Translations under genes and position numbers: made by a program
Notes under the pieces: model-generated
Told to the model about the DNA's origin: nothing
Databases searched by the model: none
What the model saw: the letters and a program-made list of their open reading frames with translations, nothing else
Shown: positions 1,614 through 36,426 of the stretch, one piece after another
How the letters are laid out: the number at the start of each line of letters is the position of its first letter
How positions within the stretch are numbered: position 1 is the stretch's first letter
IMG/VR virus record: IMGVR_UViG_2690316076_000004
Reading direction: 5' to 3' (one strand)
DNA: 37,028 nt
Origin: a virus
Taxonomy: Duplodnaviria; Heunggongvirae; Uroviricota; Caudoviricetes

Positions 1614-1653
1614 GCCCCTATCGTTATAATACGCGGTAGGGGCGTTTTTGTTT
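1614..1653 (+). terminator. putative intrinsic terminator
   Basis: GCCCCTA...TAGGGGC stem followed by GTTTTTGTTT. Confidence 0.5.
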
Positions 1654-1662
1654 GGAAATGGT

Positions 1663-3342
1663 ATGAAAACTAAACTGTATTCGTATATTCGCTTCTCGTC
1701 TATGCGTCAGAATGATGGTTCGAGTTATGAACGACAAATCAGGATGGCGAGAGAGGTTGCGGCAAAGTATGACCTTGAACTGGTAAATGATTATCAGGAT
1801 CTGGGTGTATCTGCGTTTAAGGGTGCTAACTCTAAAACAGGGGCGCTATCTCGTTTCCTTGATGCAATTGGTAGATCCGTTCCTGTTGGTAGCTGGCTAT
1901 TCATTGAAAACTTGGACCGCTTATCCCGTGCCGATATTGTCAGTGCGCAGGAGTTATTCCTTTCAATCATCCGTAGGGGGATAACCATTGTTACTGGCAT
2001 GGATAACAAGATCTACTCGCTGGATACTGTTACCGCTAACCCGATGGACCTGATGTTCTCCATCCTTTTATTCATCCGTGGTAATGAGGAAAGCCAGACT
2101 AAGCGCAATCGTACTAACTCAAGCGCACTGATTAAGATTAAAGCTCATCAAGAAAATCCACAAAATCCGGCAGTGGCAATCGAGGAAGTTGGAAAGAATA
2201 TGTGGTGGACTGATACCACTTCCGGTTATGTGTTGCCTCATCCTACATACTTCCCTGTTGTTCAGGAGATTGTGGAATTACGGAAGAATGGACGTTCAAC
2301 CGCCGAAATACTGGATCACCTTAACGAGACATATACACCGCCACCAGCAGTAAGCAACAAGAAGCATTCAAAATGGTCACGGGCAATGGTTGAAAGGTTG
2401 TTCCATACCCGCGCTTTGATTGGTATCAAGGAAGTCTCTGTAGATGGTGTTAACTATGAGTTAAAGGATTATTACCCTCGTGTTATTGATGATGCTACGT
2501 TCTATCACCTTAAGAAAAATATTGGTGCTAGAGCATGGAACTTTGGAGACAAGGAAGAAGTTAAACCGATCCCCCTGCTTAGTGGTATTGGCCTATTGAA
2601 ATGTGATCATTGCGGTTGCGCTATGGTTAAAGTGAAGGGAACGAACAAACGTTCTGACCAGTATCGTTATACATGTGATGCGACCCGTTCACGTAGACTT
2701 GATTGCGAGCATCCAAACTGGAGTTTTCGAGGTGATCAATTAGAGAAAGCTGTATTGCAATTGCTGGCTGATAAAATATGGATTGCTGAGGACAAGGCTA
2801 ATCCGGTTCCGGCGTTGAAAGTACAGGTTGATGAAATATCACGCAAGATTGATAACCTGATTGCCCTTTCTGCTATGACAGGAGCAACGAAGGAGCTAGC
2901 CGATCAGATTACTACCCTCAATAGCGAGCGTGAAACACTCTACAATCAGATCAAGATGGCAGAAGAGGAAATGTATTCTGTGGACTCTCAAGGCTGGGAG
3001 AAGCTCGCAGAATTTGATTTAGAAGATGTTTATAACGAGGAACGACTAAAGGTCCGGTTTAAGATTAAGCAAGCTCTAAAGCGGATCGGGTGTAGCAGGA
3101 TTGACAGAAACAAAAACTTGTTTGTACTGGAATACATCGATGGAAAAACCCAGAGAGTTGTAATAGAAAATTCAAGAGGAACGAGGAAAGGCCGGATCTT
3201 CATTGATTTGAAGACTATCAATGATAGGCAGATTCTGGAGAGCAACGGGCTTGTTCTGCATCCATGTTTAGACATGCTGACAGATAAGAACTGGAAACCA
3301 GAAGAGGAAATACCAGGTCCATTACAGGAATTTGGAATTTAA
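1663..3342 (+). CDS. large serine recombinase (resolvase/integrase family)
   Basis: N-terminal resolvase catalytic pattern (YSYIRFSS...Q), recombinase domain, Cys-rich zinc ribbon (CDHCGC...CDATRSRRLDCEH), C-terminal coiled-coil; track start at 1648 is TTG, ATG at 1663 preferred. Confidence 0.85.
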   Translation: MKTKLYSYIRFSSMRQNDGSSYERQIRMAREVAAKYDLELVNDYQDLGVSAFKGANSKTGALSRFLDAIGRSVPVGSWLFIENLDRLSRADIVSAQELFLSIIRRGITIVTGMDNKIYSLDTVTANPMDLMFSILLFIRGNEESQTKRNRTNSSALIKIKAHQENPQNPAVAIEEVGKNMWWTDTTSGYVLPHPTYFPVVQEIVELRKNGRSTAEILDHLNETYTPPPAVSNKKHSKWSRAMVERLFHTRALIGIKEVSVDGVNYELKDYYPRVIDDATFYHLKKNIGARAWNFGDKEEVKPIPLLSGIGLLKCDHCGCAMVKVKGTNKRSDQYRYTCDATRSRRLDCEHPNWSFRGDQLEKAVLQLLADKIWIAEDKANPVPALKVQVDEISRKIDNLIALSAMTGATKELADQITTLNSERETLYNQIKMAEEEMYSVDSQGWEKLAEFDLEDVYNEERLKVRFKIKQALKRIGCSRIDRNKNLFVLEYIDGKTQRVVIENSRGTRKGRIFIDLKTINDRQILESNGLVLHPCLDMLTDKNWKPEEEIPGPLQEFGI

Positions 3343-27119: not shown

Positions 27120-27191
27120 AATTACCCCTTATTTAATTGTTATTGGATTAACAATATTTAGGAGTAAGCCGCCCCGAAGGACGGCGAGTTA

Positions 27192-29099
27192 TTAGAACGA
27201 TGTTACCCAGCTACGGCCTCTATTTGGGCGTCTGGCGATGTTTTGACGTTGCGGTCGTGTGATTGGCTTAGTTTCTTCTATTTGCTCGTCAGATTGCGAT
27301 TTAGGAGCTTCTACGGATTCTTCGACAACACGGTTTAAGCTGTCTTTCATTGCAATGAGTTTATCCCATGACATTTTTGAAAGAACGTAGCGAGAAGCAG
27401 CATAGCTATAAACCAGACAGTCGAGAGCCTCGTTTCGGGTACTACCTGGATTTTTCACCCAACGCACGCCAGTAGTAGTACGCTTGATGGATTCACTCAA
27501 AAGCTGATCGAGATAATCATCAGGAACGGTTTCTGATATTTCTAAGCCAATATGAGGATTATCTTTCAGGTTTCTAACCAGCATTTCACGAACAGCGGAT
27601 TTCCCAACGTTAACACCCAGCATAAGCAATTCATGACCACCTGTACGGGTAGGTTTAACCGGAATCACTGGAGCATTACCAGATGAACTACCTTTGATAG
27701 CGTGTAGGTTCTTCCACTTGCCGCAAATACGGTATCCGGCTTGAGTGAATCGACCGTTCGATGTATCAAGGAAACTGGCGAGCATTGGTACACGTTCACC
27801 ATTAACGTTATAGAATTTGGTTTTCTTGAAGTTAACCAGACGATCCCAAACAGGTGATTCATATCGTTCACAGTTATGATCGTAAAAGCTGCGGTGATCC
27901 AGAATGTAAACCTTATCTTTCGCTACACCTAAGATGGTAGATTCTGCGCGGTCCAATTGCTGGTCAATTCCTGAGCACAAGAAAATCACGTCATCAGGGA
28001 TATTCTCGATAGAAACATCTGTTTTGAGTTGTTCCAGTTCATTTGCTTCTACTGCCGTGTCCTGATCGTCGTATACCTTGCCTAACACGGTGTTATAAAA
28101 TGATTGTAAATCAAAGGATTGCCACGCATGGCTAAAATCAACAACACAAGCGCGGATCGTGCTGAAAGGTGAATACAGACGGCTAATCCAGAATCCAGCT
28201 ACTTCACTTTCTCTCGTTACTCGCCATTCACCAGCAGCCACCGCCCTGATCCGCTCTCCTTCTGTCCATGCGTTCTTACAGTGGGGGCAAATATAACGAG
28301 CGGTATCAGGATCGGGTAAGTTCTTACCATCGATGTTACGCCATTCAAATTGAACGTTTTCCCACTCGATCACCTGGTGTTCCCCGCAATGAGGACACGG
28401 AACAAAAAACATACGCATATCGCTTGATAACCATTGCTGGTTAATGCTTCCGAGCTTACTGGTCGGGGTGCTGGATACGACTAATCGACCTTCATCGCCA
28501 AAGGTAGTTAAACGGTTAGCAGCCAGTGCCACCGGATCACCTTCTTCTGAGGCTGTAGCAGCATCGATTTCGTCAAGTAATCCAACCTTTGCGGTCTTAC
28601 CGCGTAGGGTTGATGGACTGGTAAGCGATACCATGTAAAGGAAGTGATTCGTTTTTAGCTGTAGCTGGTTATTGTTGTTAACCGCATTGCGATCATTCTT
28701 GTCTGTAACAACGTCTTTTAATGCATCACATGCTTCGATAGACGGTCGGATCTTACCAGCGAGATATTGAGACATTTCTTTAGCGGTTGATTGTCCGATA
28801 ATCATATTGCATGGATCGTTAGCCATCTGGTTAAACAGGATACCGTTCAGGATGGTAGTCTTTCCGATCTGTGCACTGGTCATCAGGACATACTTTTTCT
28901 TGTTCTCAAGGAAAGGTGCATCAATCATGCCTTTTTGGAATGACAACAATTTAACTTTATCCCCAGCTTGAGGACCATCTACCAGCACCATATTCGCTTC
29001 GCACCATTCAGACGGAAGGAGTTTAGGCGGTGGAGTGATATATTTTGCGGCATTTTTAAGAATCTTTTTTAATTTGGCCTTGTTCGAAATCAGTTTCAT
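27192..29099 (-). CDS. terminase large subunit, lambda gpA-like
   Basis: [26 protein letters not shown] (Walker A-like), [21 protein letters not shown] all mirror remembered gpA motifs; ATG at 29099 with GAGGG RBS preferred over track start 29174. Confidence 0.93.
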
Positions 29100-29142
29100 G
29101 TAATTACCCTCATTACGAAATATGAAGGTATTTATTAAATTG

Positions 29143-29170
29143 TTGATATTTTGATAAATACGGGTATTAA
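29143..29170 (+). promoter_or_regulatory. candidate sigma70-type promoter in divergent terL/HTH-gene intergenic region
   Basis: TTGATA (29143-29148), 16-nt spacer, TATTAA (29165-29170), about 15 nt upstream of the 29185 ATG. Confidence 0.35.
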
Positions 29171-29184
29171 TCAAAGGGGGTTGT

Positions 29185-29787
29185 ATGCTAATTAATCAGC
29201 AAGAAAGAGATGAATTAGAATTAGCCTTGTCTTGTACCGATCATGAATATCGTTTGCCAGTTAAGCACCATCACAAGAAGACTGATTACACAACATCCGG
29301 CTTTAGTCGCGAGGAAGCGAAGCAAATTTTAATAGAGTTGTATCGCGATCAGGGATATACAGATATTCACAACTTCTTTAAGAAGCACCGAACATCACAG
29401 ACAGAGTTCCAGAGAGTCCGTGAATGGTTTGATTTTGATATCAAGCGTTATTATCGAGTGGATGACGGTCCGATCTATCGGTTGCAGTGGACACCGATCA
29501 GGGAAGTGTTGAAACAGAAGAGACTAAATCACGCTATTACACGCTATCGTAACGTGGCTTTTAAGAAAGGATATGGTGATACAAGGGAACTATTCGTTGA
29601 ACTCGCTAACGTGCGATATAGCCATTATTACAGGAATCCTAAAGAGTTCTTCGAAGTGCTGCGCAAGGTTGATATAAGTCGGGGTACATACTATTCACGG
29701 TTGAAGAAGTACGGGATTAAGGCAGAGTTCTTTATGAGTATTGACGATGGAGAACTTTTTCCGATAAAATGTAAGTCCTCTAAATAA
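29185..29787 (+). CDS. HTH DNA-binding protein (C-terminal resolvase-type helix-turn-helix)
   Basis: C-terminal [15 protein letters not shown] resembles Hin/resolvase-type HTH; AAGGGGG RBS. Confidence 0.5.
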
Positions 29788-29815
29788 AGGTGAACATTCA
29801 CTTTAATTTGGAGAA

Positions 29816-30046
29816 ATGACTATGACTACTAAAGCTACTCGCGGTCGTCCTTGCCGTTTTGATCGTGAACAACTGGCAGCGATTGTAAAAGCGTACTATC
29901 AAGCACCGAAAGGTAAAGCCGAAAAAGAGCAAGTATTGAGTGAACACGGTATTTCAATCGCTCAATTCTACAAATCACTCCATAAAGTTGATTTGAAATT
30001 CTTTGTTCAGGTTGACGGTGAAATGGTAGAAGCAACAGGAATTTGA
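29816..30046 (+). CDS. small HTH protein, paralog of 33578-33757
   Basis: RGRPCRFDREQL ... GISIAQFYKSL parallels MARPVKFTREMI ... GIDRSGFYKLM in the 33578 gene; GGAG RBS. Confidence 0.5.
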   Translation: MTMTTKATRGRPCRFDREQLAAIVKAYYQAPKGKAEKEQVLSEHGISIAQFYKSLHKVDLKFFVQVDGEMVEATGI

Positions 30047-30053
30047 TTCTCTA

Positions 30054-30082
30054 GGCCAATCCTTCGGGGTTGGCCTTTTTTA
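30054..30082 (+). terminator. intrinsic terminator
   Basis: GGCCAATCC-TTCG-GGGTTGGCC stem followed by TTTTTTA. Confidence 0.8.
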
Positions 30083-30086
30083 TATC

Positions 30087-30314
30087 CGCTCAAAACTGAG
30101 CACATCTCTAAGTCATTGATTCTTCCGATGAGTCCAGATTTGGACTGATCTATAGATGCCCTCAAAACTGAGGAGATGTGCTTAAAGTTCAGCGTATCTA
30201 TCTAAGTGGTTGATTCTTTCGAGAAATTCAAACTTGAATCAATCGGCGCAAAACTGCGCTCATCTCTAACCTATTGATTCTTCCGATAAATCCAAATCTG
30301 GATGCATCAGATAC
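30087..30314. repeat. three-unit degenerate repeat (~70-85 bp each) with IHF-consensus motifs and short palindromes
   Basis: units start CAAAACTG(A/C)G; each contains ATTGATTCTT whose complement fits WATCAANNNNTTR, followed by GTCCAGATTTGGAC / ATTCAAACTTGAAT / ATCCAAATCTGGAT near-palindromes. Confidence 0.7.
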
Positions 30315-30344
30315 AAAAAAGCCCAGCGCAATTATGCGCTGGGC
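30314..30344 (-). terminator. intrinsic terminator after Rha-like gene
   Basis: perfect 10-bp stem GCCCAGCGCA-ATTA-TGCGCTGGGC followed on minus strand by TTTTTTGT. Confidence 0.85.
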
Positions 30345-30350
30345 GATTAA

Positions 30351-31184
30351 TCAGATCCCAAAATCAACAAGGGAAATTACGTTACCTGATTCACGAATCT
30401 GTTTAGCAGCTTTGTTTTGAATCAGAATAGTGTTATTTGGCTGCGGCAGTTTAAGAGTTGCTTTCTGTTCTTCTTCCAAAACGCCCAATTCAACCAGCAC
30501 CGGAAGAACATCAACAGTAAACTCAAGCTGGTAATGAGCATTCATGCGGCAGAAAGACAGAGAAGAGTCATTAGCAACATACCCACACGGCTTGTTATTT
30601 TCATCATAGACGCGCTCAATGTAGCCAGCAGTACGTAAGGCCGTCAGTGCTTGTTTAACCTTCGTAGCGCCCTTTTTAGCGCCTAACAGACGTGTCATAG
30701 AATGGCTATCTACGGATTTGCGAATGTGTAGCTCAATCAGTTTTTTATTTTTGCGTTTTTCATCTAATGCCAGTTCGATCCAGTCGGTTTCTTCAAAGTC
30801 CGCATACGGGTTAACAGGAGTATTATTGGCGGTTTTCAGTTTCTCTTCCAGATAATTCCAACGGTCAACCAGTTGGCGAGTAAATTCCGGTACGTTTTGA
30901 GCAATCAAGACAATCGAATCTAAGCGACCTTGCTCACCCTCAAACACATAATCTTTAACAGTAACAGCAAACCCTAAGTTATTGATTTTCTCGAAATTCT
31001 GCGTTGCAGGTTTTCGGATAACTTGGCGTTCAACCAGTCGGTTCATAGAAGTTTCAAGGTTTGAAAAACGAACTCCAATAAGGTCGGCAATTTCACGAAG
31101 AGTCATTTTTGCAACTTCGTTATCAACAACCAGAGACACGGAAGCAGTTTTAACAGCAGTATTCATAGTAGTAACAGTATTCAT
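30351..31184 (-). CDS. Rha/ORF6N-type phage regulatory protein (antirepressor-like)
   Basis: N-terminal MTLREIADLIGVRFSNLETSMNRL resembles Rha/ORF6N DNA-binding pattern; family call from memory. Confidence 0.5.
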   Translation of the reverse strand: MNTVTTMNTAVKTASVSLVVDNEVAKMTLREIADLIGVRFSNLETSMNRLVERQVIRKPATQNFEKINNLGFAVTVKDYVFEGEQGRLDSIVLIAQNVPEFTRQLVDRWNYLEEKLKTANNTPVNPYADFEETDWIELALDEKRKNKKLIELHIRKSVDSHSMTRLLGAKKGATKVKQALTALRTAGYIERVYDENNKPCGYVANDSSLSFCRMNAHYQLEFTVDVLPVLVELGVLEEEQKATLKLPQPNNTILIQNKAAKQIRESGNVISLVDFGI

Positions 31185-32185: not shown

Positions 32186-32766
32186 AGTGGTATCCTCTAA
32201 AAAGAAAGTGAATCAATCTAATATTATTTATAAAGAGAAAATTCTTGTTATTATGAAAGGTGATTGGATTCAGTCGGCTTCGCCTCCTTCATGATTTTTG
32301 ATTAAATCATCGTCAAAACGAAGAAGTATCTTTAGAATATAAGAATCTTTCTTTTGGAGAAATAATAATCAGGAAGCAATTTAGCAACCGAAGGTTGCAA
32401 TCCCGAAGGGATACCAATACCTTTCATGATCATTAAAGTGATTATTACTATCTTTCTAGAATCAGTTAGTAACTAGTTTAAAATCCCTTTCGAGAAAATC
32501 CTTTCAGAAGTGATTCTCGATGCCACGCAGTGGCGTCGCAGACGTTTGAGAGTGAGCGAAGCGAGCGAGCAAACTAGTTAATTCCTTCTAAGACCATCTA
32601 GTATCATCTAGTTTAAATTAGTTGTTACTAGAAGCAATTGGTTGGCGCTTCGCGCAGTCGGGCTAAAGCCCTCCTAATATCTTTCTGGTTATTTGTTGTT
32701 TTTAGTTTTACACATGAGCGTAGCGAATGTGTTATATAATATCTATGCACGCCGAATCCCTGCTTT

Positions 32767-33010
32767 TGCCCCTCGCTAAGTTAATGTTTTATAAAGAGTT
32801 TTTCTCACCAATTCCTTTCAGGGGCAAATTTCAGGGGCAAAAATTAGATTTTCAGGGGCAATTATTGGCATTTCAGGGGCAAAAATGAGGGGCAAAATCA
32901 CCGTTTCCCAGAATTTCAGGGGCAAAAATATAGGGTTTCAGGGGCAAAAATGGGATGTGGAATCTAGGGGATTTTGGTTCAGGGGCAAAAATTCAGAATT
33001 TCAGGGGCAA
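32767..33010. repeat. iteron-like array of TTCAGGGGCAA
   Basis: exact 11-mers at 32817, 32830, 32851, 32872, 32915, 32937, 32978, 33000, variants at 32886 and ~32963, one inverted core at 32767-32775; spacing mostly 21-22 bp or multiples. Confidence 0.85.
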
Positions 33011-33100
33011 TTCCCATCAAATATTTTGATAGAAAATTCCTGTATATTATTTAATCAAAAAATCACCAAAAAGCGGCGTAAGTTAATGATTTAAAAAGAA

Positions 33101-33126
33101 TTGTCAAAAGGTCTCCGTGCTATAAT
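33101..33126 (+). promoter_or_regulatory. possible extended -10 promoter
   Basis: TTGTCA then TGC-TATAAT (TGnTATAAT) at 33118-33126; -35 spacing suboptimal (14 nt). Confidence 0.3.
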
Positions 33127-33206
33127 AGGTTATAAAGGTTGATAATCCTGCTCTACCATTTTCAAACAAAAATTTTGATAGTCATTTCTCGCTTAGGTCA
33201 AGTGTA

Positions 33207-33235
33207 TTGACAACTGTCAAGGATTATTTTATACT
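33207..33235 (+). promoter_or_regulatory. strong sigma70-type promoter
   Basis: TTGACA (33207-33212), 17-nt spacer, TATACT (33230-33235); overlaps TTGACAA/TGTCAA near-palindrome. Confidence 0.5.
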
Positions 33236-33371
33236 TTTTCTCACTGGTGGGGGTTGAAATTTTCTAAACAGTCCCCATATAGATGATAAGCAAGAATTTC
33301 CACGTTATAAATACATGTGTGAAATGATTGTTCACTTCTGAAAATCTCCTGATTCACTGCTAATTCATACA

Positions 33372-33400
33372 GCACTGGTTAGATATACAGTGCTTTTTCG
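33372..33400 (+). terminator. hairpin + T-tract (leader terminator/attenuator 1)
   Basis: AGCACTG-GTTAGATATA-CAGTGCT followed by TTTT. Confidence 0.4.
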
Positions 33401-33457
33401 GTTGAATATTGTACGAATTGATTAATAATTAATCTTCTCTTTAGCAATTCGTGCTCC

Positions 33458-33484
33458 CACTGATCGGATATACAGTGGTTTTAC
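33458..33484 (+). terminator. hairpin + T-tract (leader terminator/attenuator 2)
   Basis: CCACTG-ATCGGATATA-CAGTGG followed by TTTTA; same CACTG..GATATA..CAGTG architecture as 33372. Confidence 0.4.
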
Positions 33485-33523
33485 AGGGTTTTCTGAAAAT
33501 CATTTTATAAATACAAGTGTTCA

Positions 33524-33544
33524 GAGCGAAATGCTCTTTTTTAA
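33524..33544 (+). terminator. hairpin + T-tract directly upstream of small HTH gene
   Basis: AGAGC-GAAAT-GCTCT followed by TTTTTT, about 20 nt before the RBS of the 33578 gene. Confidence 0.45.
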
Positions 33545-33577
33545 GAAATTATTAATCCACATGTGAGGAATCGACTG

Positions 33578-33757
33578 ATGGCTAGACCTGTTAAGTTCAC
33601 TCGTGAAATGATTGTTGATATTGCTAAACGCTTTTACAGCGACACTGAGCGAGGCGGGGAAAACTTCTTTAAGAAGGAAGGAATTGATAGAAGCGGATTC
33701 TACAAGCTAATGAAGAAATACGAAATTCAGGTAAAGATTAACGTTCAAGTTTGTTAA
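33578..33757 (+). CDS. small HTH protein, paralog of 29816-30046
   Basis: ATG at 33578 with TGAGGAA RBS (track start 33563 is GTG); sequence parallels the 76-aa protein. Confidence 0.5.
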   Translation: MARPVKFTREMIVDIAKRFYSDTERGGENFFKKEGIDRSGFYKLMKKYEIQVKINVQVC

Positions 33758-33871
33758 TCCACTTTCACTGAGAATTATATGATGGCTTTAAAAAAGAAAA
33801 AGCCTCCTTTGCTGCAACAAGGGAGGCTTGAAATGAACAATTAAAACTAACTTTCCACAGGAGTATTTATA

Positions 33872-34834
33872 ATGTTATTTTCCGCTAACTTTTTCACTAA
33901 CGAAGTAACCAACGCTAAAGCAGTTATCAAATTTGGCACCGAAGCAAACAAGAAGATTCAGCCGAAAGTTGTTGCTCATGTTTCCTTTGCGCAGCAGAAA
34001 TCCGCTTTCGCTGGCTTTAAAGCACATCGTGAAGCACTGATCGCGGCTGGCTTTGGTGTTGACGGTAAACTGCCTAACGGCATTCGTAAAGCAATCGACC
34101 GCGTTAAACCTGCTAAAGACGTTGCAGTAGACCACATCGTTACTTTCACCGTTAAGAACTCTTCTGAACTGTTCCACCTAGTGATTGCTGGTGATACTGC
34201 TATCGTTTCCGCTCCTAACATGGATTTTCAGGATACCGCTGATTGCAACATTACCTTTGGTCGTCGTAAAGAAGTTACCGGAAAAGCTAAACTGAACTTC
34301 ACCAAATCCGGCAATCCTTACTTTGCTGTATTCTTTAACAGCCACGCTACTGAGAAAGAAGTAGTAGAACTGGTTGCATATGAAGGTGAAGAAAAAGCAC
34401 GTATTGAATCTTGCGACGCTTTCGTAGAACTGGAAGCACAGGTTAATGCTGTTTCTCCGGTTGCTGTTGAAGATCGTTTCTCTGCACTGGAAGCACAGAT
34501 CGCAGAACTGAAAGCTGCACTGAAAGAAAAAGACCAGATCATCGAAGCACAGAAAGCTGAGATTGAAGAACTGAAAGCTAAAGAAGTTGCTCCGGTTGCT
34601 GTTGAAGCAGATCGGGAAGTTGAATCTAAAGACTTCTTTACTCAAGCGGTTGAATCTAAAGACAAACAAGCTCTTTGGATTCTGCTTAACGAAAAGCGTA
34701 CTGTTGCAGACGTTGCAGAATGGAACAAATACCTGATTAAGAAAAATGGTTCTTCCGTTCAATTCATCGATTTAATGACAGTTAAAGTTTTTGATGCGTT
34801 CGAAAATGTGTTCGACGTTCGCAAAGCAGCTTAA
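33872..34834 (+). CDS. hypothetical protein with host-like high-expression codon usage and central coiled-coil
   Basis: 320-aa ORF with AGGAG RBS; codons dominated by CTG, CGT, GGT, AAC, GAC, ACC unlike the AT-rich structural genes; coiled-coil EAQIAELKAALKEKDQIIEAQKAEIEELKAK. Confidence 0.65.
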   Translation: MLFSANFFTNEVTNAKAVIKFGTEANKKIQPKVVAHVSFAQQKSAFAGFKAHREALIAAGFGVDGKLPNGIRKAIDRVKPAKDVAVDHIVTFTVKNSSELFHLVIAGDTAIVSAPNMDFQDTADCNITFGRRKEVTGKAKLNFTKSGNPYFAVFFNSHATEKEVVELVAYEGEEKARIESCDAFVELEAQVNAVSPVAVEDRFSALEAQIAELKAALKEKDQIIEAQKAEIEELKAKEVAPVAVEADREVESKDFFTQAVESKDKQALWILLNEKRTVADVAEWNKYLIKKNGSSVQFIDLMTVKVFDAFENVFDVRKAA

Positions 34835-35871: not shown

Positions 35872-36426
35872 TTAAGACACATCAAATTCATCGTCTTCAT
35901 CTGGTTCTTGTTCCGGTTCATCGATTAATGGTAATTCTTCTTCCTCGTCTTCTCCCAAATCCGCATTTTCGAACAAGTCCCCTACTTCATTTAAACGACG
36001 CTCGATGATCTCCCTTAGCTTATTCTTCAATGTTTTCTGGTCGGTGGCAGATTCTAAAATTTCTAAAGCATCGATTGTGGCGATCTGCAAAATAGTCTGT
36101 TTCACTTTCCCGCAATATTCCGCTAGTTCCTGTTCTACATAACCGACCGGAATCAGGAGGTTCATTGCTTCCTGGTTCTCTCGTTCGGCTGCATCTGCCA
36201 ATGCTCTCTCACGGCGTAATTTCTCTACGTCGATTTGTTCTTTGATGGAAGTGTTTTTTAACGGGTTAATGATGTTCTTTAGCACCCAATCGCAACCTTC
36301 TTTGGCTGGAACACGTCGTGTGTTGGTGTTAAATGGCAATCCCCTTTCTATCCATCGCTTACCGCCACCATTCAATGAATAGCCGTATAAACGGGAAATT
36401 TCTGTAAGGGTTAATTCTTCTTTCAT
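35872..36426 (-). CDS. terminase small subunit, lambda Nu1-like
   Basis: N-terminal LTLTEISRLYGYSLNGGGKRWIERGLPF and EKLRRERALADA resemble remembered Nu1 (QLADIFGASIRTIQNW...RGGGKG... ENEKLRRE); acidic C-terminus; GGAGGA RBS. Confidence 0.75.
   Translation of the reverse strand: MKEELTLTEISRLYGYSLNGGGKRWIERGLPFNTNTRRVPAKEGCDWVLKNIINPLKNTSIKEQIDVEKLRRERALADAAERENQEAMNLLIPVGYVEQELAEYCGKVKQTILQIATIDALEILESATDQKTLKNKLREIIERRLNEVGDLFENADLGEDEEEELPLIDEPEQEPDEDDEFDVS

Follow-up and report, generated by a model that had tools for sequence, protein, structure and literature searches.

Tandem modules related to a Rha/Roi antirepressor-gene segment, with IHF-type sites and palindromes, in an Escherichia coli prophage

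The array and its surroundings

The window, by which we mean the whole stretch of 37,028 nucleotides that was analysed, is a prophage of Escherichia coli. Its array region is 100% identical to that of strain L3Cip3 (NZ_CP062211.1, 2216671-2216981), in which hicB is the insertion site of the element; this copy of the prophage (L042) has an IS3-family element in a tail-fibre gene. When complete E. coli genomes were searched, 41 of 5426 matched the region, at one or two places each, and those examined all carry the same prophage family. Phage GenBank gave no DNA match to the region in either near or distant search mode. Reading along the minus strand, a rha gene is followed by the array and, further along, by the genes for a lambda gpA-type large terminase, portal and capsid (Table 1). 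The terminase gene terL, which starts at window position 29098 according to RefSeq, lies about 1 kb from the array, and the space between them is occupied by a plus-strand cassette of two genes encoding 200 and 76 amino acids. The array is flanked by rha and the 76-aa gene, while a terS-like ORF (PHROG 57) is found 7 kb off.

Several other features of the prophage were recorded along the way. The two-gene cassette, whose 76-aa product is HTH-like, occupies the place directly upstream of terL that a lambda-type Nu1 gene would take. An IHF consensus match on the minus strand, TATCAACAATTTA, lies in the 86 bp that separate the divergent terL and 200-aa genes, and it is conserved in relatives. Between a minus-strand 152-aa gene and a plus-strand 320-aa gene, 1.7 kb of AT-rich DNA (GC 0.35-0.39) lack any ORF of at least 70 aa and could hold regulatory sites, an RNA gene or cos. 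The prophage also has a large serine recombinase.

The rha product (277 aa) has RefSeq homologues named ‘Rha family transcriptional regulator’, matches PHROG 63 (Ant) over residues 16-148 and gives weak winged-helix Pfam matches over residues 23-68. Its N-terminal domain shares 43-50% identity with HK022 Roi and with KilAC antirepressors, and a search of the PDB found no sequence relative of the protein.

Table 1. Features of the window and module arrays in helper-embedded PICIs (positions in the window, or in the named locus for the PICI arrays)
Feature	Position	Strand	Details
Large serine recombinase	1648-3342		
Large terminase gene (terL)	27191-29098	minus	lambda gpA-type
Divergent region terL/200-aa gene	29099-29184		IHF consensus at 29136-29148 (minus strand)
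Cassette of 200-aa and 76-aa genes	29185-30046	plus	
Left-boundary intrinsic terminator	30053-30082	plus	10-pair stem, TTCG-type loop, T run (scan: 30053-30076)
Unit A	30084-30150	minus	palindrome GCTCAAAACTGAGC 30088-30101; IHF consensus AATCAATGACTTA 30109-30121 (minus strand); palindrome AGTCCAGATTTGGACT 30131-30146
Unit B	30153-30241	minus	palindrome CCTCAAAACTGAGG 30160-30173; longer palindrome GATGTGCTTAAAGTTCAGCGTATC 30175-30198; IHF consensus AATCAACCACTTA 30203-30215 (minus strand); palindrome ATTCAAACTTGAAT 30226-30239
Unit C	30242-30312	minus	palindrome GCGCAAAACTGCGC 30246-30259; IHF consensus AATCAATAGGTTA 30267-30279 (minus strand); palindrome ATCCAAATCTGGAT 30290-30303
Right-boundary intrinsic terminator of rha	30313-30344	minus	10-pair stem with 8 GC pairs, T run (scan: 30344-30321)
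Rha-family regulator/antirepressor gene	30351-31184	minus	277 aa
rha-internal module	30975-31009	minus	IHF consensus AATCAATAACTTA 30975-30987 (codons K-I-N-N-L); palindrome CTGC-AAC-GCAG 30999-31009
AT-rich stretch	32186-33871		
terS-like ORF	35872-36426		PHROG 57
PICI array, L008	5230-5400		
PICI array, L037	7000-7140		
PICI array, L038	6290-6480		

A repeat search resolved positions 30084-30312 into three degenerate direct units between convergent intrinsic terminators. Two repeat families were recovered, D1 (44 nt, three copies, 70-73% identity) and D2 (61 nt, 82%), together with a 22-nt core, TCTAAnnnWTTGATTCTTyCGA, at 30107, 30201 and 30265 and a weaker fourth copy at 30973, within the neighbouring rha gene. 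By chance 0.05 matches to this core are expected, and four were reached in none of 100 shuffled sequences. Each unit is laid out as a palindrome, an IHF consensus on the minus strand and another palindrome. The element CAAAACTG(A/C)G opens the units (at 30091, 30163 and 30249), with a short palindrome around CAAAACTG, and the closing palindromes are 14-16 bp long; that of unit C has the same half-sites as AGTCCAGATTTGGACT of unit A with the centre flipped. Seven matches to the IHF consensus are present in the 37-kb window, and four of them are accounted for by the three units (at 30109, 30203 and 30267, one in every unit) and the rha-internal copy at 30975. Both strands of the array fold better than shuffled sequences (z of -5.3 and -3.4).

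Much of this anatomy had been proposed in a sequence-only reading of the same DNA. Its three-unit repeat with a common unit start is borne out by the repeat families, the core statistics and the three opening elements, its near-palindromes at the unit ends were all located, and the inverted copy of AGCACATCTC that it noticed in unit B was recovered as inverted repeat I2. The internal motif that it assigned to every unit needs amending, since unit B has GTTGATTCTT rather than ATTGATTCTT, and TTGATTCTT is what all three have in common; its claim that the complement fits the IHF consensus holds for all three units, which match WATCAANNNNTTR on the minus strand. Likewise, the strong terminators that it placed around the cluster, on both strands, were both found by a terminator scan. 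We conclude that the IHF-type motifs and palindromes are genuine and non-random, and that they probably form a protein-binding DNA element.

The left terminator, which closes the plus-strand cassette, is conserved, and relatives have it in two forms. The stem of the rha terminator (30321-30344) contains GCGCAATTATGCGC, a palindrome of the family found in the array and in rha alleles, in place of which relatives have GCCCCTGAAATTCAGGGGC. A sigma-70 promoter scan detected no promoter-like site within the array. Rfam families, including C4 and isrK, gave no match under gathering and E-value thresholds; nothing reached a gathering score, and the sub-threshold matches of the array region are driven by the terminator. 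ARAGORN found no tRNA in the array.

Relation of the units to a segment of rha

When the minus strand of the array was compared with 14 rha alleles by local blastn, we obtained three co-linear matches, all falling at nt ~150-230 of the gene, with E-values down to 4e-7. The units have the same orientation as the resident rha and lie just downstream of it. Unit A aligns on its minus strand to nt 168-222 of the L013-type allele (77% over 56 nt, E 4e-7), and its first palindrome equals that of the L019-type allele at 21 of 21 nt; translated by hand in the rha frame, it reads IDQSKSGLIGRINDLE, where the L013-type allele has IDQLKTEFVERINNLG. The long palindrome of unit B is 86% identical over 28 nt to the palindrome of the L023-type allele, and its IHF part is 81% identical over 36 nt to the L013 allele. 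For unit C, the first palindrome resembles GAGCGCAATTTTGCGCC of the L017-type allele (87%, 30 nt) and the IHF part matches the L013 and L035 alleles. Overall the window units are 65-87% identical to known alleles, and no exact cognate protein was found. On these alignments, the identification of the units as non-coding copies of a segment of Rha/Roi antirepressor genes, and their origin from such genes, appear well supported.

A codon-level alignment of rha alleles separates a conserved N-terminal stretch of 22 aa, a hypervariable Rha/Roi-type winged-helix domain of about seven types and a conserved C-terminal domain. The segment homologous to the units probably encodes the wing of the winged-helix domain, as it comes after residues 23-68, where the weak winged-helix matches lie. 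What sets alleles L019, L021 and L023 apart from one another is chiefly a palindrome that stays in frame, GATG-arm-centre-arm-(C/G)NATC, whose two arms change together. It is these allele-specific palindromes, of the L017, L019, L021 and L023 types, that the array palindromes match, and not that of the resident rha.

The resident gene holds one copy of the module, with its palindrome centred 17 nt upstream of the core. Including this copy, the distance from palindrome centre to IHF core is 17-17.5 nt in all three window units. The candidate Rha/Roi operator module shows both homology to the gene segment and a palindrome spacing of ~17 nt. The same arrangement recurs in most of 50 unique non-coding modules and in coding copies, where the palindrome is centred 15.5-18 nt from the core and about 15 different arm sequences occur. 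The mean perfect palindrome arm is slightly better in the non-coding copies (5.4) than in the coding ones (4.9).

Over 35 unique roi/rha alleles, the codons of the IHF core show no synonymous variation, with Ile written as ATC and Leu as TTA in 35 of 35 each, while 13 of 14 other degenerate codons for invariant residues in the same alignment vary. Invariant core codons beside varying neighbours point to a constraint at the DNA level. Taken with the presence of the consensus WATCARNNNNTTR in the three units and the rha-internal copy, this makes an IHF site in the module moderately well supported. The conservation of the core in the non-coding copies, for its part, could be mere inheritance from a coding ancestor. 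One roi allele, L203, was seen to have an in-frame stop just ahead of the IHF core (VF*KINNLG).

Variation among relatives and arrays in helper-embedded PICIs

We retrieved 26 related loci from IMG/VR through the rha gene, all with the same flanking genes, and found the stretch between the two terminators to be hypervariable. In seven relatives (L014, L019, L020, L023, L025, L027 and L030) the site is empty, with only about 14 nt present, and two others (L033 and L034) have a complete extra minus-strand gene in place of the array, which marks the site as a moron-type insertion hot spot. Others contain one to four small palindromic modules that differ from one to the next. Given the seven empty sites, any function of the array must be dispensable. 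Comparison of empty and filled sites indicates that the insert replaces CCTA between ATA and CAGATAC, with neither a target duplication nor terminal inverted repeats. The 14-nt core of the empty site is inverted in L020 (GTATCTGTAGGTAT) relative to L023 (ATACCTACAGATAC), and in L021 the insert has GTAGG on either side.

Arrays of the same type of module are present in helper-embedded PICIs of E. coli, downstream of terS and a 93-aa gene, where we first met them at locus L008. These elements are described in PMC10111431, where we found no mention of the module arrays in the passages searched. Across 80 such loci (L046-L125), arrays range from none to more than six modules and lie within ~0-450 nt past the 93-aa gene; a PICI array used as query matches 824 of 5426 complete E. 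coli genomes. As in the window, the modules read TAAnnnn[TC]TGAT, then a spacer, then a palindrome, and they are tandem, co-oriented and hypervariable. Unlike the window array, the PICI arrays are longer (up to six or more modules) and begin right at the 93-aa gene's stop codon, without an intervening terminator. The units themselves also differ, those of the PICIs being near-identical to roi/KilAC genes of extant lambdoid phages. In one array, single units share 90-98% identity over 43-53 nt with lambdoid prophage genes annotated as ‘phage antirepressor KilAC domain-containing protein’ or ‘Rha family’, and the two matched KilAC genes that we examined sit in the nin region at the roi position. 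In prophage and PICI arrays alike, the fragments come from the same ~60-nt part of genes of 720-830 nt, in tandem and co-oriented. The possibility that the PICI arrays represent IHF sites of an attP arm was dropped, as they lie ~300-400 bp from the TGTATTGC arm motif, too far for the usual intasome (PMC10111431).

Candidate functions of the array

The sequence-only reading had taken the repeated IHF bends and palindromes as typical of a cosB or pac recognition region, a replication origin or a site-specific recombination site, which now appears extremely unlikely. Repeat-flanked IHF consensus sites do resemble lambda cosB (R3-I1-R2-R1) and P1 pac (hexamer repeats flanking an IHF site), which likewise combine repeated sites for phage winged-helix proteins with an IHF bend, and a gpA-type large terminase is encoded nearby. 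In addition, the L008 PICI has, about 400 bp upstream of its module array, a lambda-like cos, recognised by its likeness to the lambda cos sequence. That reading looked to conservation of the repeats in relatives, but 7 of 26 sites are empty and the rest have differing modules or an inserted gene, so that the array is absent or wholly different in phages with the same terminase; being dispensable among them, it is hardly a cosB, a pac or an essential origin. It is also separated from terL by a cassette on the opposite strand, adjoins neither a terS-like gene nor cosN, and consists of units derived from an antirepressor gene, and the empty and filled sites display neither a direct target duplication nor a recombinase core. 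Also very unlikely is that host REP/BIME-like or MITE-like mobile palindromic elements landed between the convergent genes. E. coli BIME-1 elements (RIP/RIB) have an architecture of palindrome, IHF site and palindrome (PMC3333891, PMC2817692), that is, a REP, an IHF-binding L motif and an inverted REP; the array mirrors this at convergent 3' ends, where BIME-1 elements cluster too, and its palindromes are found in both orientations. The likeness is limited to architecture, however, as the array belongs to another sequence family, has much shorter (14-16 bp), AT-centred palindromes without the 5' GTAG/CGTC tag that marks REPs (PMC3733652), and is homologous to phage coding sequence. Rather than being dispersed over the chromosome it occurs at low copy, in the 41 of 5426 genomes and one or two places each noted above, in this prophage family in all those examined. 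A MITE or an element of the IS200-605 type was rejected for want of terminal inverted repeats or a target duplication between empty and filled sites. The idea of an IS200/IS605 TTGAT target, suggested by TTGATT, was abandoned because no transposase accompanies the array and because the I-N codons, together with the IHF core, account for the motif. Other candidates for a short palindromic repeat array were discarded as well: a type III toxin-antitoxin locus with ToxI-like repeats (no adjacent toxin seen), a CRISPR-like mini-array (no repeat-spacer structure seen), a DGR template repeat (no reverse transcriptase among the annotated ORFs) and iterons (no initiator gene seen).

A possible but doubtful alternative is that the array is non-functional debris, left behind at a mosaic junction and moron hot spot by recombination with rha alleles, illegitimate or palindrome-mediated, that took place repeatedly, and now decaying neutrally. 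The hypervariable and often empty site, the whole gene in L033 and L034, the inverted core in L020 and the dispensability of the array would all fit, as would the degraded palindromes of some modules, such as the L001 unit CTGCAATACAG. Random debris would, however, sample the whole gene, whereas the fragments in two unrelated types of element cover the same short part, in tandem and co-oriented. The spacing between palindrome and IHF core is fixed in most of the 50 distinct non-coding modules, and conserved PICI arrays are found in over 800 E. coli genomes. Transcription offers another explanation, which we consider unlikely: that a plus-strand transcript of hairpin modules silences the wing-coding segment of the antirepressor mRNAs of rivals or helpers, in the manner of the P1 c4 and P4 CI RNAs; it would arise by read-through of the terminator of the 76-aa gene in the window or from the 3' UTR of the terS operon in the PICIs. 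Those RNAs, which act on ant/eta, genes of the Bro network, are likewise short repeats related to parts of antirepressor-type genes and vary with allele specificity. The window array and the PICI arrays each follow a gene read in the plus direction, and in each the plus strand is antisense to antirepressor genes. Both strands of the window array fold well, and over 43-53 nt the complementarity of PICI units to real genes reaches 98%. RNA immunity is known to target genes of the Bro/Ant type (PMC10111431). Against such a transcript, the window array lies behind a strong terminator on each side, has no promoter-like site and matches neither C4, isrK nor any other Rfam family, and the window units reach only 65-87% identity to known alleles. 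The pattern of mismatches in the palindrome arms (8 G.T, 13 A.C, 45 other) shows neither the wobble bias of G.U over A.C that RNA would leave nor a preference for either strand, and many palindromes run on through a centre of only 0-2 nt, which leaves too little for an RNA loop. These two observations fit two-fold symmetric sites in double-stranded DNA better than RNA hairpins. Covariation of the arms was set aside as an argument for RNA, as compensatory changes are equally expected for two-fold symmetric DNA sites, and hairpins of the nut/boxB antitermination kind, suggested by shape, were dropped once homology to coding sequence emerged.

We favour, at a probability of roughly one half, an accessory array of portable modules, each a Rha/Roi operator with an IHF site, whose predicted function is that of a DNA-level binding platform or sink. 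According to this proposal, the three units are degenerate copies, non-coding and in tandem, of a module of 60-90 bp whose normal place is within antirepressor genes of the Rha/Roi family. IHF would bend each module on double-stranded DNA, and a Rha/Roi-type winged-helix dimer of matching specificity would bind the palindrome. With the help of IHF, the array could in this way be a landing pad or a sink for several specificity classes of Rha/Roi proteins, coming from resident, co-resident or incoming phages, and might buffer their activity or autoregulation. Proteins of other phages are included because the array palindromes are not of the resident type; only through this hypothesis would the presence of palindromes of non-resident specificity be explained. 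Both the binding of a Rha-type protein and the sink function are inferred.

Some of the ingredients of the proposal are known, namely an IHF site beside a Roi site inside roi, and a BIME-1-like layout. HK022 Roi reportedly binds inside its own gene beside an IHF site, with IHF stabilising the binding (Clerget and Boccard 1996). The 4-kb nin region of HK022 has a single IHF consensus, which we located in roi (NC_002166, 34655-35380) at about 34780-34820, in the position homologous to the module and just after the palindrome CCTGCATTGCAG. The module and the N-terminal domain of the window Rha are homologous to roi and Roi, and the order and spacing of palindrome and IHF core are the same. The window modules differ from the HK022 site in being extragenic, three in tandem and equipped with non-resident palindromes and a second palindrome beyond the IHF core, and binding to them is predicted. 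The IHF-dependent rha genes of phi80 and P22 are also among the closest known systems, and without IHF, Rha is detrimental to lytic growth (PMC4936722). Our literature search found no description of extragenic hypervariable arrays of the Rha/Roi module in prophages or PICIs.

More speculatively, prophages and PICIs may keep hypervariable libraries of operator modules copied from the Rha/Roi genes of other phages, as a record of competitors or helpers, for defence or for eavesdropping. Since the DNA that probably encodes the wing also holds the proposed binding palindrome, a copied fragment would be a ready-made decoy or sensor for its specificity class. Such a library might act together with IHF at the level of DNA; in PICIs, antisense RNA is another possibility.

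If the portable-module proposal is wrong, the region would be a mere recombination scar at a moron insertion site. If it is right, Rha/Roi antirepressors carry their own operator within the coding sequence of their DNA-binding domain, and mobile elements copy this 60-bp piece into non-coding arrays, which would give prophages and satellites a simple means of titrating, sensing or silencing one another's antirepressors. The proposal would also account for ‘late zone’ DNA of PICIs that occurs in over 800 of 5426 complete E. coli genomes and has no annotated feature in the records examined, and the IHF dependence of the Rha/Roi phenotype, a long-standing observation, would become approachable in molecular terms.
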